This document shows positions 1,597 to 52,682 of a stretch of DNA of 64,000 bases, in pieces. Numbering within the stretch: position 1 is the first letter of the stretch; the number at the start of each line of letters is the position of its first letter. The translations under genes were made by a program, and so were the position numbers. Under the pieces are notes generated by a model that saw only the letters and a list, made by a program, of their open reading frames with translations, was not told the origin of the DNA and made no database searches. The stretch comes from an uncultured Candidatus Saccharibacteria bacterium (GTDB taxonomy: Bacteria > Patescibacteriota > Minisyncoccia > Phycocordibacterales > PALSA-1337): assembly GCA_964532285.1 (NCBI GenBank), contig CAZHHB010000001.1:77916-141915 (forward strand), read 5' to 3'.

Positions 1597-3084
1597 ATGA
1601 AGAAAACCGCCAACAATACTATTCCACAGGAAATAGTCACCGTTGTAGAAACTCTCGAAAAGGGCGGATTTCAGGCATATCTCGTAGGAGGATGTGTCCG
1701 AGACATATTCCTAGGCCGAACGCCCAAGGATTGGGACGCTACAACCAACGCAACGCCAGATCAGATACAGAAATTATTCCCCAAGACCGTGTACGAGAAT
1801 ACATTTGGCACAGTAATAGTCATAAATGAACAAACCGAAGACGAAACATTGAGAAATGTAGAGATAACTCCCTACCGAATGGAGTCTAGCTATTCAGATC
1901 GCCGTCATCCCGATCAAGTCAAATTTAGCGATAAGATTGAGGATGATCTAAAGAGACGAGATTTTACAATCAACGCCATCGCAATCAACCTCTCAAATGG
2001 CGCTATAAAGGACACAATTGACTTATACGGCGGTTTTACTGACATAAAGGACAAAACCATCAGAACTGTTGGTGACTCTGTTGAACGCTTCTCTGAGGAC
2101 GCCCTACGCATGATCCGCGCCATCAGATTGGCTGTGGAATTAGGTTTCACGTGCAACAAAGAGACCTTCGCAGCCATAAAAAACCACAATTCAATGATAA
2201 AGGATGTTTCTATGGAGAGAATTCGTGACGAATTTGTGAAAATACTCATGTCCCCTGCCCCAAAACAAGGGATTGAACTGCTCCAAGAATCAGGAATACT
2301 CAAGTTTATAGCCCCAGAATTGGAAAAAGGTATGGGTGTGAAACAGCCACAAGCTCACGCTTATGATGTCTGGGAACACCTATTGAGGAGTTTACAGCAT
2401 GCCGCAGACAAGGAATGGCCCCTAGAAATAAGGCTTTCTGCCCTATTTCATGATATCGCCAAGCCACAGACTAGGGGGTTTTCTATTGAAACAAAACAAC
2501 CTACCTTCTATGGGCACGAAGTCGTTGGTTCACGTGAAACACGCAAGATACTAGAAAGAATGAAGTTTTCACGTGCAACCATTGAAAAGGTGGTTAAAAT
2601 GGTCCGTTGGCACATGTTCTTCTCTGATACTGGCATTGTCACGCTGTCAGCGGTCAGACGCATGATTGTTAACGTTGGCAGGGAAAACATCTGGGATCTC
2701 ATGAACCTCAGGATATGTGACCGTATCGGTACAGGCAGACCCAAAGAGAATCCTTATCGCCTAAGGAAATACAAATCGATGGTAGAGGAAGCTCTTCGAG
2801 ATCCGATCTCGGTATTAATGTTAAAGATTGATGGAAAGAAGATTATGGAAATAGGGAATATCCCCGCTGGCCCTAAAATTGGAATGGTCTTAAATGCTCT
2901 AATGGAAGAAGTTCTGGATGACACAAAACTAAATACTGAAGAATACCTATCCAGGAGAACCTTGGAGTTGCTAGCTCTGCCTGAGATGGAATTGGCTACA
3001 TTAGCAAGAAAAGGTAAGGAGAAAAAGGATCTTGAAGAGGAGAAGGGTATTGAAGAAATCAGAAACAAACACCATGTTTCATAA
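1597..3084 (+). CDS. cca: CCA-adding enzyme / tRNA nucleotidyltransferase with HD domain and C-terminal extension
   Basis: Contains the motifs GGCVRD..LG, DWD and RRDFTINA of the polymerase-beta nucleotidyltransferase head, followed by the HD motif LFHDIAKP. The ATG at 1597 follows an in-frame TTG at 1594. Confidence 0.8.
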   Translation: MKKTANNTIPQEIVTVVETLEKGGFQAYLVGGCVRDIFLGRTPKDWDATTNATPDQIQKLFPKTVYENTFGTVIVINEQTEDETLRNVEITPYRMESSYSDRRHPDQVKFSDKIEDDLKRRDFTINAIAINLSNGAIKDTIDLYGGFTDIKDKTIRTVGDSVERFSEDALRMIRAIRLAVELGFTCNKETFAAIKNHNSMIKDVSMERIRDEFVKILMSPAPKQGIELLQESGILKFIAPELEKGMGVKQPQAHAYDVWEHLLRSLQHAADKEWPLEIRLSALFHDIAKPQTRGFSIETKQPTFYGHEVVGSRETRKILERMKFSRATIEKVVKMVRWHMFFSDTGIVTLSAVRRMIVNVGRENIWDLMNLRICDRIGTGRPKENPYRLRKYKSMVEEALRDPISVLMLKIDGKKIMEIGNIPAGPKIGMVLNALMEEVLDDTKLNTEEYLSRRTLELLALPEMELATLARKGKEKKDLEEEKGIEEIRNKHHVS

Positions 3085-3092
3085 GATCTTAT

Positions 3093-3122
3093 GCCGAAGG
3101 TACCGAGCGTAGCGAAATGTCC
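3093..3122 (+). repeat. degenerate third copy of the 29-nt upstream motif found at xerC and pcrA
   Basis: gccgaaggtaccgagcgtagcgaaatgtcc matches gtcgaagacactgagcgtagcgaagtgtta at about 24 of 30 positions. The GTGTC/GACAC palindrome is lost and no gene follows. Confidence 0.4.
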
Positions 3123-4603: not shown

Positions 4604-5536
4604 TTATCTCTTTTTGTCATGAAACTGTTTATGGACTCTTTTTAGCTCGCTATCTGTAATGTGAGTATATATTTGAGTTGTACCAATATTTGCATGACCC
4701 AGAAGCATCTGAACAGAGCGAAGATCGGCACCATTACCGAGTAGGTCTGTCGCAAAACAATGGCGAATTATATGCGGAGTAACCTTCTTGGAAATACCGG
4801 CCTTGATAGCATAGTACTTTATGATTCTCTCAATTGAGCGGGAGGTTAGTCCCGGATCGTCATTCATTTTCCTATCATCTCCGGCAATCTTTGCGAAGAG
4901 GGAATCTCCCATATCAACACGCTTATCAAGATATCTTCTCAAGGAAGACTTGGCGGTGTCGGAAATGAAAACTACGCGAACCTTGTCACCTTTTCCGCGG
5001 ACAGAGAGTTCATCGCCATGCAAATCTATATCACGAGGCAGGGAACAGAGCTCGGAGACGCGCAGACCAGTAGAAAAGAGTAATTCCAGAATAGCTTTGT
5101 CTCGAAGAGCCTTCAATTCACTACCTTTCGGAGCTTCTAGCAATCTTTTCAATTCATCCGAGCTGATGAGGTCTATGTGCCGTTCGCCAACCTTGGCAAG
5201 CTCTATATGTTCTGGCGAGAGGGTGCTGACATTCCTTCTGGCTAGATACTTCAGGAATGCTCGAAGAGAAATGAGATAATAATTCTGTGTTTTCTTCTTT
5301 AATGTAGTACCTACATCATTGCCACCGCGATTCCTGCCTGAAGATTGACGATTGAGCCAAAGACGAAACTCGCGAACAGTGTCTGGGGTTATAGCAGAAG
5401 GACTATCGCTCTTCAAAAAACCCAAAAAGCGAGTCAGATAATGGTCATAATTCTCAACAGTTTTGAGAGATCGTCCTTTTTCTATTTCAATATACTCTAA
5501 AAATTGCTGTTTTAGGGTTTTGAGATTGTGCGACAT
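4604..5536 (-). CDS. tyrosine site-specific recombinase XerC/XerD-like
   Basis: The C-terminus HIIRHCFATDLL..GADLRSVQMLLGHANIGTTQIYTHI carries the R..H-R-Y catalytic residues. The start is trimmed to the ATG at 5536 because the upstream 14 codons are the conserved 29-nt motif read from a GTG. Confidence 0.8.
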   Translation of the reverse strand: MSHNLKTLKQQFLEYIEIEKGRSLKTVENYDHYLTRFLGFLKSDSPSAITPDTVREFRLWLNRQSSGRNRGGNDVGTTLKKKTQNYYLISLRAFLKYLARRNVSTLSPEHIELAKVGERHIDLISSDELKRLLEAPKGSELKALRDKAILELLFSTGLRVSELCSLPRDIDLHGDELSVRGKGDKVRVVFISDTAKSSLRRYLDKRVDMGDSLFAKIAGDDRKMNDDPGLTSRSIERIIKYYAIKAGISKKVTPHIIRHCFATDLLGNGADLRSVQMLLGHANIGTTQIYTHITDSELKRVHKQFHDKKR

Positions 5537-5549
5537 GGCTTTATTGTAA

Positions 5550-5578
5550 CACTTCGCTACGCTCAGTGTCTTCGACAC
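5550..5578 (-). promoter_or_regulatory. conserved 29-nt motif 13 nt upstream of the xerC start codon
   Basis: In gene orientation it reads GTGTCGAAGACACTGAGCGTAGCGAAGTG. It contains the palindrome GTGTC-N3-GACAC. A copy with one mismatch lies 14 nt upstream of pcrA. Confidence 0.5.
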
Positions 5579-5659
5579 CCAGTGACAAGGTCCCTCCTTC
5601 GCTCACTGCTACGCATGAGCTACGGCGGGCAATGCCGACCTTGCTACCCTCGAAAATAC

Positions 5660-5688
5660 TTGACAATTCCTGCAGGTATGCTAGGATA
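5660..5688 (+). promoter_or_regulatory. sigma70-like promoter, copy 1 of a duplicated promoter
   Basis: TTGACA, a 17-nt spacer ending aggtatgc, then TAGGAT. The other copy at 42219-42246 is almost identical (cttgacaa-N8-aggtatgcta). Confidence 0.5.
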
Positions 5689-5800
5689 CATGCAGAGTGA
5701 CCTATGAACAGTCTAGATTCGCCCGAAACCCCTGTGGGGATTAGGGGGATTAAGCGATAGGTCACATGGCAAAACAATGCAAAAACAAAGAAAGGCACAA

Positions 5801-5914
5801 ATGAAAGATCCTTCGAAAAAGAAACACATTTCCAAGAAAGTCGCGGAATTGAGCTGCAATCATTCGGCCTGCCACGCCGGCGCCGGCACCTTCAACGTTA
5901 TTCTTAACGTTTGA
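5801..5914 (+). CDS. possible 37-aa small protein MKDPSKKKHISKKVAELSCNHSACHAGAGTFNVILNV
   Basis: Lies downstream of the duplicated promoter, with an AAAGAAAGG Shine-Dalgarno-like sequence 7 nt before the ATG. It sits in an orphan GC-rich segment and is followed by a hairpin. It was not in the ORF track because it is shorter than 60 aa. Confidence 0.25.
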   Translation: MKDPSKKKHISKKVAELSCNHSACHAGAGTFNVILNV

Positions 5915-6041
5915 CCCCGGCTTCTCCTGGCCCAGCCCATCACCCTAAGCAAACGAAAGCGTTTGCGGGGTGGTGGGCTTTAATCTATATTCAATGGCGA
6001 ATACTTGCGTCTGCGTATCATTCATGCTAATATACTAAATC

Positions 6042-6308
6042 ATGTTAACAGCCAGACAAAAGACCAAGATTATCAAGGAAACGGGTATTCACGACAAGGA
6101 TAGCGGCTCTCCGGAAGTCCAGGTCGCCCTTTTGACCAAGAAAATTGAGGAATTGACTGGTCATCTACGCAAACATCGCAAAGACAACCACTCTCGCCGT
6201 GGTTTACTCGGTATGGTTGCAGACAGACAGACTCATTTGAATTATCTCAAGAAAAACTATCCTAGACGCTATTCTGCTATAATAAAGAAGTTGGAACTCA
6301 AGAAGTAA
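6042..6308 (+). CDS. rpsO: 30S ribosomal protein S15
   Basis: 88 aa carrying the S15 signature ...[22 protein letters not shown]...L.YL. Confidence 0.9.
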
Positions 6309-6370: not shown

Positions 6371-6892
6371 ATGTCAGTAATCAAACATCAAGAACAGCGT
6401 GTCGGTGTTTTCATAGACGCGCAAAACTTATATCATAGTGGGAAAAACCTATATCATTCCAAAGTAAATTTCGGTCAAATAGTAAAAGATGCCGTAGATG
6501 GACGCAAACTCGTCCGTGCTATCGCTTATGTTATATCTACAGAATCAGGTGAGGAAAGCGCCTTTTTCGACGCACTCACCAAGATGGGTATAGAAACCAA
6601 GGTCAAAGATCTGCAAATATTCAGTTCCGGCGCCAAAAAAGCGGATTGGGATGTTGGTATGGCTATAGATGCTGTACGCTTGGCTCCGAAATTGGATGCC
6701 ATCATTCTCCTCACTGGCGATGGTGACTTCGTACCACTGGTGGAATATCTACAGATGAATCTCGGGTGCCAGGTTGAAGTCGTATCATTCGGCAAGTCCA
6801 CTTCAGCGAAACTCATAGAAGCTACTGACCATTTCATGGACCTGGATGAGACACCTAATAAATATTTACTTAGATCGGGAGGGAAGAAGTAG
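6371..6892 (+). CDS. NYN/LabA-like (PIN-like) domain protein
   Basis: Contains VGVFIDAQNLYHS...AIAYV....LTGDGDF.PLVEYLQ, the NYN-domain acidic motifs. It is inserted between rpsO and pnp. Confidence 0.7.
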   Translation: MSVIKHQEQRVGVFIDAQNLYHSGKNLYHSKVNFGQIVKDAVDGRKLVRAIAYVISTESGEESAFFDALTKMGIETKVKDLQIFSSGAKKADWDVGMAIDAVRLAPKLDAIILLTGDGDFVPLVEYLQMNLGCQVEVVSFGKSTSAKLIEATDHFMDLDETPNKYLLRSGGKK

Positions 6893-7099
6893 GATAGTGA
6901 ATAGATCTGATCTTGGTATAAAATTTAAGTCTATGTTACTCTGACGGTATACCAAGATCGGATCTTGATATATTACAAACTAATTTCGCCTCCAGATAGG
7001 CAGGTTTGTCCGTCTACATCATTCAATGACGGATCAAGTCTGAAATCTGAGGGCGAAAACGGTTGACCAAGATCGGATCTTGGTCAAACCGAAAATATT
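6893..7099 (+). promoter_or_regulatory. pnp leader carrying three related palindromes (ccaagatcNgatcttgg)
   Basis: The perfect 25-nt palindrome ttgaccaagatcggatcttggtcaa lies at 7065-7089. Partial copies lie at about 6902-6918 and 6948-6968. Confidence 0.45.
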
Positions 7100-17451: not shown

Positions 17452-17522
17452 GCGTTAATTGTAGCACATACTATCCCCATTTCTAAGCCATAAAATAACC
17501 CTTCTCTGATATAATTACTAGC

Positions 17523-38742: not shown

Positions 38743-39753
38743 TTATAATAGCTTCGCCGTGCCTTTGACTCCGATATGTGCATACGCTTTGTCTGTAGCT
38801 GTTCTGCCTCGCGGTGTGCGTTCCAACAAACCTAATTGTATCAAATAAGGTTCATAGACTTCTTCTATAGTCGCTTGTTCCTCAGATAGGGCCGCCGCTA
38901 ATGTATTCAACCCCACAGGTCCGCCGCCGAATTTATTAATAAGAACTTTCAAAATATCGCGGTCGGCCTGAGTGAGACCTATTATATCTACACCAAGCAT
39001 GGCAAGGGCTTTCTCTACAGCATCTTTCGTAAGCGAGGTCTTCTTGATCTGGGCATAGTCACGGCAACGCTTGAGGTGATAATTGGCGGTGCGTGGGGTA
39101 AATCTGGATCGTACGGCGATCTCTTTCACAGCATCGGGATGGATTTCTATGTCCAAGATCTTTGCCGAACGCTTGACGATGTCAGAGATCTCATCATCTG
39201 AGTAAAATTCAAGCTTGAATACACCTCCGGAGAAACGAGAGCGCAGTGGCGCAGAGATCATCGCTATCCTAGTCGTTGCCGCAATGAGGGTGAATTGAGG
39301 AAGATCTAATTGAATAGTTCGAGCCGATGGACCCTTGCCGATGATGATGTCCAAAGTGCCGGTTTCCATAGCAGGGTAGAGGACTTCCTCGATGGCTTTG
39401 TTCAGACGATGAATCTCATCTATGAATAGAATGTCTCCAGTAGAAAGATTTGTGAGAACAGAAGCGAGATCTCCGACTTTCAAAATAGCTGGACCGGAAG
39501 TAACTTTCATCTGCGCGCCGGTCTCTTTTGCGATCAGGTGTGCCAGTGTAGTCTTGCCGAGTCCCGGTGGACCGTAGAAAAGTATATGTTCCGGCGGATG
39601 TTTGCGCTCTTTTGCAGCAGTAAGCAGTATATGCAAGTTGTCTTTTATCCCTTTTTGGCCAATGTATTCGTCCCAACGCGAAGGACGGAGGGTTTGATCC
39701 AGGAACCCCACTTCTTTTTCATTTAATGGTGTATCTTTGATACTTCTTGACAT
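38743..39753 (-). CDS. ruvB: Holliday junction branch-migration helicase RuvB
   Basis: Walker A GPPGLGKTTLA, Walker B DEIHRL and a sensor 2 region. Confidence 0.9.
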   Translation of the reverse strand: MSRSIKDTPLNEKEVGFLDQTLRPSRWDEYIGQKGIKDNLHILLTAAKERKHPPEHILFYGPPGLGKTTLAHLIAKETGAQMKVTSGPAILKVGDLASVLTNLSTGDILFIDEIHRLNKAIEEVLYPAMETGTLDIIIGKGPSARTIQLDLPQFTLIAATTRIAMISAPLRSRFSGGVFKLEFYSDDEISDIVKRSAKILDIEIHPDAVKEIAVRSRFTPRTANYHLKRCRDYAQIKKTSLTKDAVEKALAMLGVDIIGLTQADRDILKVLINKFGGGPVGLNTLAAALSEEQATIEEVYEPYLIQLGLLERTPRGRTATDKAYAHIGVKGTAKLL

Positions 39754-39839
39754 TTAGATATGAGTATGCTAGTATTCTACACGAGTAAGATATTTAAACG
39801 CTAAGTGCTTGGTTGTCTAATATTAAGCATACAGCGCAA

Positions 39840-40127
39840 GAAGCAAAAAACAAAGCGTAGATTAGGGGGTATTTTCGAGCTCACGAACCTCTAAGCAATG
39901 GCCTTCCCAGGTTTGGGCATAGTTCTAAGGACATTCTGGTTGCAATGCTTCGGTATTGCGTACTGGAATTCTCCTCGGGACTGTGCCTCGCGCGACGCAT
40001 CACGCGTTGCGATATTGCTTAGAGATTCTCGCGCTTGAATCTCTCCGAGAACGCTTCTGTTGGCATCCTAGCGCTGTCCACAGGAAAAAGGCAAGTGACA
40101 AGTGACGCCGAACATGGTGAATAGTTT
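39840..40127. other. GC-rich non-coding segment with long-range complementarity (candidate structured RNA)
   Basis: No ORF of at least 60 aa. ctctaagcaat at 39888 pairs with attgcttagag at 40016. A hairpin gagattc..gaatctc is present. It shares gattaggggg(t)at with 5745. It occupies the position upstream of ruvB where ruvA is usually found. Confidence 0.25.
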
Positions 40128-40451
40128 TTACCTTACCTTCATCCCAGACTTTTGGAGCGCCTCAGTATATTCTCTTTGAATTCTTTCCAATTCAGAATGT
40201 CTCTTTTGATGTTCAAGTTTGAGTGTCCTGATATCGGACATCAGTTTTGGCTTCTTCCTTTCAAATTCTCTTAATTGAGCTTTCTTTTCTTCCAGAGTTC
40301 TTTCTAAGGTAATTATTTCTTGTTTTACTTTCGGCATACCAGTTTCCATCGCCTGTAACTCTTCTTCCTTGGCTTTCAATTCATGAGTCTCTTTTTCGGT
40401 CTCTCTTTGTAAAGCCTGGATCGCTTGGTTCAAATCATTTGGGTTTTGCAT
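40128..40451 (-). CDS. coiled-coil hypothetical protein
   Basis: Predicted to be all-helical and K/E-rich. It overlaps the end of pilB. Confidence 0.3.
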   Translation of the reverse strand: MQNPNDLNQAIQALQRETEKETHELKAKEEELQAMETGMPKVKQEIITLERTLEEKKAQLREFERKKPKLMSDIRTLKLEHQKRHSELERIQREYTEALQKSGMKVR

Positions 40452-42168: not shown

Positions 42169-42218
42169 TTGGGATAATTGTAATACGAATCGGCGAATTA
42201 TACGACTTTTTATATAGC

Positions 42219-42246
42219 TTGACAACCACAATAGGTATGCTATAAT
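42219..42246 (+). promoter_or_regulatory. near-consensus sigma70 promoter, copy 2 of the duplicated promoter
   Basis: TTGACA, a 16-nt spacer, then TATAAT. Flanking bases match the copy at 5660-5688. Confidence 0.55.
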
Positions 42247-42298
42247 GGTGGGGTAACAGAGAGATAACAATAAACCAATAGAAGAAAGAGAGTACATT

Positions 42299-42649
42299 GT
42301 GAAAACCAACAAAATCGTTAAGCTGCTCAGTCTGATCATCCTGACCATCATCACCCTCAACTTCACTGGCTGCGTCACGTCCGTGACGAATACGGATTCC
42401 AGCGGCAATAAACATCGCCGCCTCAGCATCATGGACCCGCTGGCCAATTGCGCCAGCGATAATGGTGGAAATGTGCGGATCCAGCAGGGTGTGTCCATCG
42501 GCGGTGTGGGGCAGATCCAGACCACGGGTCGAATGATCTTCGTCCCAGAAGGGCAGAGCCCGCCACCGGGATTTGTTCCGGTCGGGTCTCAGACTCAGAC
42601 CAAGACTTGGAGTCCGACGGAAATGTCGGACACAACTATCAGACGGTGA
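42299..42649 (+). CDS. GC-rich small lipoprotein gene (GTG start)
   Basis: An AAGAAAGAGAG Shine-Dalgarno-like sequence lies 8 nt before the GTG. The signal peptide ends in a lipobox-like LNFTGC. GC content is about 55% against a ~40% background. It is bracketed by a consensus promoter and an intrinsic terminator. Confidence 0.45.
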   Translation: MKTNKIVKLLSLIILTIITLNFTGCVTSVTNTDSSGNKHRRLSIMDPLANCASDNGGNVRIQQGVSIGGVGQIQTTGRMIFVPEGQSPPPGFVPVGSQTQTKTWSPTEMSDTTIRR

Positions 42650-42670: not shown

Positions 42671-42710
42671 CAGCCGCTATTCCTTCAAGGACTAGCGGCT
42701 GATTTTTTTA
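42671..42710 (+). terminator. rho-independent terminator
   Basis: Stem cagccgcta / tagcggctg followed by TTTTTTTATT. Confidence 0.7.
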
Positions 42711-52215: not shown

Positions 52216-52682
52216 AGAATACCCCAGTACTTAACAGCTGTTCCTTTGCGTAAAACTAAGTTATAACACATTCAAATCGGCTTTTGTATAGGTAACACCA
52301 AGTTTGTATGTTTTCCATAGAATATCCATAGTTTTCTAATAACTCGTCTTACCCGACATATATCATAGCTCTATCATAGGTCTTTCCAGTAACATTCATG
52401 GTTTTTCTATCTTTAAATCTTAGGTTTTCTAAGGTTCTCTAAGTTATTCACAAATAATCATTTGGTGCTATGATACGGATACAACTGAATATCGTGAAAG
52501 TAGCCTAAACTAGTAAGTAATTATTAGCATGGCAAAAAATCCCATGGAAGATACTGAACCCCACGTTCAGCGCTCTTCCATGGGTTATACCGGGAAACTG
52601 GTATAGAAGCCGTAAGGCTTTGCTGGCGTGGGGCTTAGTGTTTATACACTGACCCCCTACCATAAACTGTGGGTCTTTTTGC
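52216..52682. repeat. iteron-like direct repeats and a nested hairpin (candidate element origin)
   Basis: Repeated ccatagaata / catag units and ttctaaggttctctaag. A hairpin cccatggaaga..(ctgaac cccacg ttcag)..tcttccatggg lies at 52541-52585. Confidence 0.35.

Follow-up and report, generated by a model that had tools for sequence, protein, structure and literature searches.

A predicted, independently transcribed mini-gene with a small open reading frame upstream of rpsO, and its fast-evolving relatives in Patescibacteria

Bacterial small open reading frames (sORFs) of fewer than 50 codons that lie on their own short mRNAs come with their own promoter, ribosome-binding site and terminator, show coding-type codon periodicity and are missed by gene callers. 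Other short reading frames encode leader peptides with a regulatory role in which proline codons or the stop codon are decisive, as in mgtL/mgtP of Salmonella and tnaC of Escherichia coli, and in small genes of the arfA/brfA type the end of the open reading frame (ORF) is embedded in a hairpin or terminator. Structured S15 autoregulatory leaders (Rfam RF00114 and relatives) sit directly upstream of rpsO, and LOOT RNA (RF03000) is known from candidate-phyla bacteria. Here we compare with these systems a segment at positions 5659-5987 of a 64,000-nucleotide (nt) stretch of contig CAZHHB010000001.1, from an uncultured Candidatus Saccharibacteria bacterium (the whole stretch is called the window below). 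Flanked by a xerC-like gene (minus strand, 4604-5536) and rpsO (6042-6308), which stand 505 nt apart, the segment shares with sORFs on short mRNAs all of the parts and traits just listed.

We consider it probable that region 5659-5987 is an independent, monocistronic, strongly expressed and translated mini-gene, one member of an unannotated and fast-evolving family. A near-consensus sigma-70 promoter with an extended -10 element would start a transcript at about 5694, and the first ~70 nt are predicted to fold as a 5'-terminal hairpin that may stabilize it. An A-rich single-stranded tract would then offer a strong purine-rich ribosome-binding site, AGAAAGG, to a 37-codon ORF at 5801-5914, which would yield a polar, probably disordered peptide. 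The stop codon appears to sit within a GC clamp, and a long hairpin would end the ~290-nt transcript ahead of the leaderless-type promoter of rpsO. Structural statements here and below derive from single-sequence folds and simple counts. The parts are as follows.

5659-5687, plus strand: mini-gene promoter, strong sigma-70 type, with the same extended consensus in relatives (-35 TTGACA at 5660-5665, TG at 5679-5680, -10 TAGGAT at 5682-5687)
5694-5800, plus strand: predicted 5' leader of the mini-gene, a terminal hairpin followed by an unstructured A-rich tract
5789-5795, plus strand: Shine-Dalgarno-like purine motif AGAAAGG, 5 nt before the ATG at 5801
5801-5914, plus strand: small ORF of 37 codons plus stop (UGA at 5912-5914), translation MKDPSKKKHISKKVAELSCNHSACHAGAGTFNVILNV; 45 amino acids from an upstream ATG
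5875-5921, plus strand: GC clamp (predicted fold), with CGCCGGCGCCGGC in frame inside the ORF
5934-5987, plus strand: terminator-like hairpin (5934-5979, 20 bp) and weak U tract UUUAAUCU

The promoter (TTGACA-16-TAGGAT) has 10 of 12 hexamer matches and a TG-extended -10 element. Downstream of the predicted start, the leader folds with -29.6 kcal/mol (z=-2.75), and the arms of its hairpin (5697-5705 and 5757-5765) form an inverted repeat complementary at 9 of 9 positions. In the predicted clamp, GCCGG at 5882-5886 pairs with CCGGC at 5917-5921 and encloses the UGA stop; CGCCGGCG, located at the clamp, has a single occurrence in the window. The terminator-like hairpin reaches -34.5 kcal/mol (z=-6.1). 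A consensus terminator scan made no call at 5934-5987, where there are too few U residues, and relatives have hairpins at the equivalent place with better U tracts. Folding of the unit's transcript gives z=-3.8 overall and z=-6.75 for its 3' part.

A preliminary description of this DNA had paired the segment with a 116-amino-acid lipoprotein gene that follows a second copy of the same promoter motif near 42,219, and much of the anatomy that it gave stands. Both sites head self-contained units of promoter, ribosome-binding site, GC-rich mini-ORF and terminator; the 37-45-residue and 116-residue ORFs are as described; and Shine-Dalgarno-like sequences are present at both (AGAAAGG at 5789-5795 and AGAAGAAAGAGAG at 42280-42292). 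The GC-rich hairpin before rpsO is there too, but it ends 62 nt before that gene and not 45. A GC content of ~55% was right for the lipoprotein ORF (55.8%), whereas the rpsO-side transcript (5694-5985) has 50% and is GC-rich only locally, with a peak of 60% at 5850-5949 against 42.1% for the window. GC skew in that peak is -0.30, and the tail past the stop is C-rich and G-poor. By third-position GC (GC3), the lipoprotein ORF (0.70) and the small ORF (0.61) rank first and second among 62 window ORFs.

The setting recurs in other genomes. Relatives of the S15 protein, 65-95% identical, were found only in Paceibacteria/Taylorbacteria-type candidate-phyla (Patescibacteria) genomes, and the window is assigned to a bacterium of that type. 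About 70 loci have xerC divergent from rpsO, with a spacer of 45-117 nt in ~47 and of 250-750 nt in ~23. Short spacers hold only two divergent promoters; most long spacers have the same architecture as the window unit, on the rpsO strand. A unit is thus found at the xerC-rpsO position, in fixed orientation, in about one-third of the related Paceibacteria genomes. The same-strain contigs L081 and L082 are identical and so offer no microdiversity; ERR3094292 and ERZ27247828 are samples with identical contigs. Only one relative, L053, can be aligned with the window unit (nhmmer E=1e-7). The two share the start ATG AAA GAT CCN TCN with two synonymous differences, have ORFs of 37 and 38 codons with an in-frame 6-nt indel, and differ by a compensatory G-C to A-U change in the 5' stem. 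Loci L101 and L103 (S15 94-97% identical) both carry the unit with quite different ORFs, and three other relatives of similar closeness have short spacers. In a rough tree the unit clusters in some clades; the window's nearest neighbours by XerC are without it, and the most similar copy (L053) sits in another clade.

Across the family the architecture is kept while the sequence drifts almost freely. Family-wide elements are the promoter, a 5' hairpin whose 5' arm resembles GAUCUUUG, the ribosome-binding site with its ATG, and the terminator. Of 16 leaders, 14 have their first paired base no more than 7 nt from the predicted 5' end, and AAGAAAGG(AG) is kept 5-10 nt before the ATG. The ORFs comprise 25-62 GC3-rich codons and open with an N-terminal M-(N/K/R)-x-(S/D/G)-P-(P/S). 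All 15 members have motifs of the CGCCG/CCGGC type on either side of the stop, at most 60 nt upstream and at most 28 nt downstream of it, as against 0 of 225 leader windows, and most minimum-energy folds of the family place the stop codon inside a hairpin.

Some members depart from this plan. In L078 (~2600-3100, plus strand), a same-type unit lies after the NYN-domain gene and not before rpsO, with promoter, CGAAUCG... leader, AAAGAAAGGAG, and a GC3-rich ORF of 60 codons whose stop is accompanied by GC motifs, so units of this type are not restricted to one spacer in this gene neighbourhood. Long forms (L053, L063, L034, L065, L017, L018, L036 and L031) have a second, very strong AAAGAAAGGAG(G) motif 30-110 nt past the small ORF, followed in four of them by UC(U/G)(U/A)ACA(C/U)CC. 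After this second motif come 100-250 nt of variable sequence and then the terminator, a part that is missing in the window. A second small ORF (M-x-SYT...) looked for behind it in the long forms gave inconsistent frames. In L051 the small ORF (MIRGPP...) remains open up to rpsO and runs through the terminator hairpin, so a terminated transcript would be a non-stop mRNA.

The case that these reading frames are translated comes from a conserved start and initiation signal combined with three-base periodicity and synonymous-biased change. GC by codon position in 15 family ORFs is 0.475/0.514/0.694 (chi-square p=7e-15), and the third position is the highest in 12 of the 15 (p=3e-4). C fills the third base of four-fold boxes in 58% of cases, a share that is 24-38% when the two alternative frames are read and 24-32% in genes nearby. 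The bias extends to codons 6-18, away from the GC motif, and of 16 occurrences of CCGGC, 15 are in the same frame. Where six ORFs share the start MNSPP, every difference is synonymous, including serine codons AGT, AGC and TCG; a proline lies within residues 4-8 in 14 of 15 ORFs. The peptides are polar, with N, P, H, C, T, G, S and A raised and E, D, V, L, I, Y and W lowered (V, L and I to about half the background level). The earlier suggestion that the small ORF might be spurious is not supported, in view of this codon periodicity and of synonymous-only change at the start across 15 lineages.

As for homology, a search that had been proposed for the small ORF, no known protein family was matched. 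The small peptide had no homologue in a word-indexed search of 5.8 billion proteins or in an exhaustive phmmer search of 1.84 billion representatives, and ten family peptides had no match in Pfam or NCBIfam. In metagenomes, the only matches to the promoter-plus-leader pattern were four contigs that carry one unrelated AT-rich sequence and match by chance. Nothing specific was found in the literature on small ORFs or on Shine-Dalgarno versus leaderless usage in candidate-phyla bacteria. Should the product be sought directly, VAELSCNHSACHAGAGTFNVILNV is a tryptic peptide expected from MKDPSKKKHISKKVAELSCNHSACHAGAGTFNVILNV.

Several observations weigh against a translated gene whose peptide is the product. 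ORF length is unexceptional relative to composition-matched shuffles (p ~0.3 each; 11 of 15 within 25-42 codons), some family ORFs are cut to 7-15 codons and one runs into the terminator, and gene callers skip the small ORF on the public same-strain contigs. The peptide sequence is almost unconstrained, even at 94-97% S15 identity. This is unusual for a functional protein, and a role of the act of translation or of the RNA would fit at least as well. ACC GGC shows zero synonymous variation in five members and therefore points to an RNA- or DNA-level constraint inside the ORF. In an organism that seems to use almost no Shine-Dalgarno sites, AGAAAGG is a putative ribosome-binding site. The family thus differs from described sORFs in three ways: its peptides are almost unconstrained past the first five residues, GC motifs bracket the stop, and a strong Shine-Dalgarno-like site stands in a genome otherwise nearly without them.

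How far this initiation signal stands apart can be gauged from the rest of the window. A Shine-Dalgarno-type motif precedes just 5 of 47 other window genes, in each case a weak AAGG, and GGAGG occurs 83 times on both strands, which we estimate to be near chance and thus neither avoided nor favoured. In most window genes a -10-like element precedes the ATG by 6-8 nt (for example at 5543-5551, minus strand; 6028-6041, plus strand; and 17458-17485, minus strand). Upstream of xerC, 6 nt separate the -10 element TGTTACAAT (minus strand, 5543-5551) from the ATG, which makes the xerC mRNA look leaderless, and the mRNAs of this genome in general look largely leaderless. Unlike most window genes, the small ORF and the lipoprotein ORF have long purine-rich ribosome-binding motifs. 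If the 3' tail of 16S rRNA is CCUCCUUUCU, AAAGAAAGG(AG) would be a perfect partner over 9-11 nt.

The mini-gene appears to be separate from both of its neighbours, which are arranged as follows.

4604-5536, minus strand: xerC-like tyrosine recombinase, left neighbour (Pfam Phage_integrase and SAM-like domains), with synteny in ~70 loci
5537-5658, no strand assigned: stretch between the xerC and mini-gene promoters, 122 nt, 54% GC
6005-6033, plus strand: rpsO promoter (TTGCGT, 17 nt, TGcTAATAT), ending 8 nt before the rpsO ATG at 6042
6042-6308, plus strand: rpsO (ribosomal protein S15), right neighbour, PF00312

Nearly all spacers of relatives, short and long, have a promoter of this kind next to rpsO, a few nt from the ATG. 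With transcript ends taken from sequence, rpsO would have no real 5' untranslated region and, given a promoter of its own that stops 8 nt short of the ATG, would not be expected to have 5694-5985 as its leader. Unlike S15 autoregulatory leaders, which are likewise structured and directly upstream of rpsO, the unit has no Rfam match, is separated from the gene by a terminator and the rpsO promoter, and is absent in two-thirds of relatives.

The stretch at 5537-5658 folds weakly (z about -1.6 on both strands), has no counterpart in relatives and is missing from the L053 alignment; the other long spacers L034, L056 and L063 have different filler at this position, partly with inverted repeats.

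A match of the 5700-6000 segment to a housekeeping RNA or an rpsO leader, which the preliminary description had left open, was not found. Rfam 15 gave nothing at gathering score on 5300-6200 (at E<=10, only chance microRNA-like matches), only LOOT and three tRNAs on the whole window, and no match for the corresponding regions of 20 related loci; ARAGORN found no transfer-messenger RNA (tmRNA). We accordingly set aside RNase P, tmRNA, signal recognition particle RNA, 6S RNA, T-box and S15 leader, none of which reaches the gathering threshold. By eye, the terminator's 3' arm GGGGUGGUGGGC is similar to a T-box; the T-box model gave no score and the idea was dropped. An rpsO leader was also rejected on the grounds that the promoter at 6005-6033 and the hairpin terminator upstream of it separate the unit from rpsO.

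The promoter motif itself is real: CTTGACAA-N7-AGGTATGCTA-N2-AT matches exactly at 5659-5687 and 42218-42246, against a chance expectation of 0.01 in the window. It had been reported one base higher and with an N8 spacer, a spelling that neither site matches and that a related promoter at 39746-39775 does. Both original sites are predicted to be active sigma-70 promoters with an extended -10, the lipoprotein promoter (TTGACA-16-TATAAT) having 12 of 12 hexamer matches and the TG extension. Since the third promoter is of the same type, the motif would represent a promoter class and not a pairwise duplication. The extended consensus taCTTGACAAa...GGTrTGCTAnnAT covers every base common to the two copies, and it is also found in relatives' promoters at the equivalent position. 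TGCTAnnAT forms the -10 region of rpsO and of LOOT RNA in the window, and 14 unrelated phage contigs have the pattern CTTGACAA-N7-RGGTRTGCTANNAT upstream of ordinary genes (chance expectation, roughly estimated, <1). The motif does not differ from the extended -10 ('TRTGn') sigma-A/sigma-70 promoters of low-GC bacteria and phages, with TTGACA, 16-17 nt ending in GGT(A/G)TGn, and TAnnAT.

Because the consensus recurs at 39746, in the -10 elements of rpsO and LOOT, in relatives and in unrelated phage contigs, it reads as a shared consensus and not as a duplicated module. The units have no sequence in common outside the promoter, and their leaders differ, that of the mini-gene being structured and that of the lipoprotein unstructured. 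On this evidence, the likeness of the 5659 and 42218 promoters is best described as convergence on the lineage's optimal promoter and not as descent of a cassette, which goes against the duplicated or co-transferred promoter module that had been proposed. The shared bases extend over the longer consensus and are not confined to the hexamers, to which, it had been allowed, the similarity might be limited on realignment.

Flanked by a pilB-type ATPase gene (minus strand) and tsaE, the second motif copy heads these features (the third promoter is listed with them).

39746-39775, plus strand: third promoter of the same type, near-consensus, spacer longer by 1 base
42218-42246, plus strand: lipoprotein promoter, second motif copy, perfect 12/12 with TG
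42253-42298, plus strand: predicted lipoprotein leader, unstructured, about 52 nt
42280-42292, plus strand: purine run AGAAGAAAGAGAG, 6 nt before the GTG at 42299
42299-42649, plus strand: 116-amino-acid lipoprotein gene with GTG start, signal peptide and FTGC lipobox
42671-42710, plus strand: intrinsic terminator, hairpin at 42671-42701 with a 13-bp stem plus U7 (-22.3 kcal/mol, z=-6.1)

By inspection of the translation, the lipobox MKTNKIVKLLSLIILTIITLNFTG is followed by C, as expected of a bacterial lipoprotein, and the GTG start and clean terminator (42671-42701 plus U7, z=-6.1) are as first described. GC3 is 0.70, against 0.43 +/- 0.05 in 23 long genes. The protein belongs to no family in Pfam or NCBIfam, finds only itself among 5.8 billion proteins and has no relatives in viral contigs. 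A foreign origin of the lipoprotein is plausible. For the rpsO-side unit, horizontal acquisition as a simple story is unlikely because the same xerC-rpsO position is occupied in ~23 of ~70 related genomes; its patchy distribution leaves loss or replacement open. The proposal of horizontally acquired cassettes thus fares poorly at the fixed rpsO-side site and still possibly applies to the orphan lipoprotein with its high GC3.

Four other explanations of the mini-gene deserve weighing against the translated-gene reading, two of which concern its RNA. The unit might be a translation-coupled RNA device, whose ORF is translated with the peptide as a by-product. Early proline codons (xPP/DPS) would slow or stall ribosomes, possibly depending on elongation factor P, prolyl-tRNA or the supply of free ribosomes; ribosome position would decide the folding or exposure of the GC clamp and C-rich tail; and the outcome would be transcript stability, Rho access, cleavage by the nearby NYN/PNPase nucleases or, in relatives' long forms, use of the second ribosome-binding motif. 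We regard this as unlikely, yet it stays alive because the first five residues are kept, the rest drifts and RNA motifs surround the stop. Consistent with it, amino-acid conservation is confined to those first five residues, the stop has GC motifs to either side in all 15 members and lies in a hairpin in most folds, ACC GGC is invariant at the nucleotide level, and the tail after the stop is C-rich and G-poor. The second AAAGAAAGGAG motif of the long forms has no conserved ORF behind it, and the unit stays in the rpsO/NYN/pnp neighbourhood even when displaced (L078). The resemblance to mgtL/mgtP and tnaC lies in the short ORF with early proline codons and in the structure and C-rich stretch from the stop onwards, followed by a terminator hairpin. 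Here, however, no regulated gene lies between ORF and terminator in the window, rpsO has its own promoter, and the candidate antiterminator pairing of 5741-5750 with 5939-5948 (9/10) is at chance level. The same facts, a sole downstream gene with its own promoter and an alternative pairing at chance level, led us to reject a leader-peptide transcription attenuator. The window motif is moreover DPS and not PP, and the third-position bias and constrained composition suggest that the product itself matters. A non-coding small RNA, trans-acting or a sponge, with an accidental ORF seems to us quite improbable. The transcript is highly structured (z=-3.8 overall, z=-6.75 in the 3' part), has a strong promoter and a terminator like the LOOT RNA of the window, and carries an ORF of unexceptional length without protein homologues, all as this explanation would have it; but an accidental ORF would not be expected to show three-base periodicity over 15 independent lineages, MNSPP changes that are all synonymous, including a six-fold serine switch, correct spacing of ribosome-binding motif and ATG in all members, in-frame indels, and a CCGGC frame kept in 15 of 16 cases.

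The two remaining explanations concern the unit's neighbourhood and origin. A mobile promoter-plus-cargo cassette, present in two recently and horizontally transferred copies of one type, would account for the first and second GC3 ranks of the two ORFs among 62 and for their long purine-rich ribosome-binding motifs, next to a weak AAGG in 5 of 47 other genes. It would also suit an orphan lipoprotein, a patchy rpsO-side unit whose L053 copy is in another clade and whose closest XerC genomes lack it, and an adjoining tyrosine recombinase gene. We nevertheless think it very unlikely. Promoter identity is fully explained by the generic extended consensus of phages and relatives, nothing else is shared between units whose leaders differ in structure, and flanking repeats are not significant (a 12-nt repeat with 10/12 matches is at chance level). 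All ~70 loci, whether they have a unit or not, keep the recombinase as a housekeeping-type neighbour, the constant site and orientation fit inheritance with frequent loss, and there are no phage or viral matches. The least credible explanation, to which we give scarcely any weight, is a cis-regulatory leader or attenuator of rpsO, such as an S15-binding mimic, with read-through into the gene. The unit is immediately upstream of rpsO on the same strand, and the window terminator has a weak U tract and was missed by the terminator scan. Against this, an rpsO promoter intervenes between hairpin and rpsO in nearly all relatives, with or without a unit, rpsO has no ribosome-binding site usable by a leadered transcript, two-thirds of relatives have no unit, L078 has one after the NYN gene instead, and no Rfam S15 leader matches.

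More specific candidates were also tried and rejected. An integron-like mobile cassette is disfavoured by flank repeats at chance level and by a fixed site and orientation in ~23 loci, a verdict that the displaced L078 copy keeps from being conclusive. For an insertion at a dif site or otherwise exploiting Xer, short spacers (45-75 nt) leave no room, and window flank repeats are at chance. A phage origin found no match when the spacer was compared with phage genomes by blastn. A type I toxin-antitoxin system does not fit peptides that are polar and not hydrophobic, and no minus-strand promoter lies inside 5690-5990. A variable C-terminal part, a trait of ribosomally synthesized and post-translationally modified peptides (RiPPs), is present in the family; a RiPP, bacteriocin or pheromone precursor was rejected, the neighbours being xerC, rpsO, the NYN-domain gene and pnp in all loci, with no family matches. 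Like arfA and brfA, the unit's ORF is small, lineage-specific and fast-evolving with its 3' end inside a hairpin, and the L051 ORF enters the terminator. In contrast to them, family peptides are not consistently basic at the C-terminus and a stop is normally present; a ribosome-rescue factor fails on composition or context.

Other features of the window were recorded alongside. The third promoter, divergent from ruvB, heads a 374-nt gene-free stretch (39746-40135, plus strand) that folds with -131 kcal/mol (z=-7.3) and has no Rfam match even at E<=10; it is a candidate structured RNA of ~300 nt. This stretch and the mini-gene leader share the 10-mer GATTAGGGGG and the A-rich tract GCAAAAAACAAAGCG. 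LOOT RNA (RF03000, 98 bits) lies at 52502-52621 on the plus strand, with a promoter, TTCACA...GGTGCTATGATAC, ending ~28 nt upstream of it (52447-52621 for the whole). Like the mini-gene unit, LOOT is a short, structured, strongly promoted stand-alone transcript of the same genome; it differs in having a defined covarying structure and no ORF, whereas the unit has a ribosome-binding site and a periodic ORF, and the unit does not match the LOOT model. Between rpsO and pnp lies the NYN-domain gene (6371-6892). The pnp leader (6990-7099, plus strand) has two strong hairpins (z=-5.7), the second near-perfect (~7060-7091) and ending 8 nt before the pnp ATG, and recalls the pnp leader that RNase III processes in E. 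coli. At 59000-59300, in the region of an ORF at 58910-59776 (minus strand), GC rises to a second local peak (0.54-0.55 over windows of 300 nt).

Candidate-phyla bacteria (Patescibacteria) have tiny, poorly understood genomes whose small genes and RNAs are almost entirely unannotated, and the mini-gene would add to them a recurrent, strongly promoted family missed by gene callers, Pfam, NCBIfam and Rfam. Its evolution is unusual, for apart from the architecture, residues 1-5 and the GC motifs around the stop, which are kept, everything changes freely. The promoter motif offers a usable consensus for strong promoters of the lineage, and the mini-gene may serve as a handle on translation initiation in a lineage that apparently relies on leaderless mRNAs. 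If the unit encodes a small disordered protein, it would be a modest addition to the catalogue. If it senses translation, it would be a regulatory device of a new kind, one that would suit organisms translating mostly leaderless mRNAs without Shine-Dalgarno sites and in which the NYN nuclease or PNPase might be involved.

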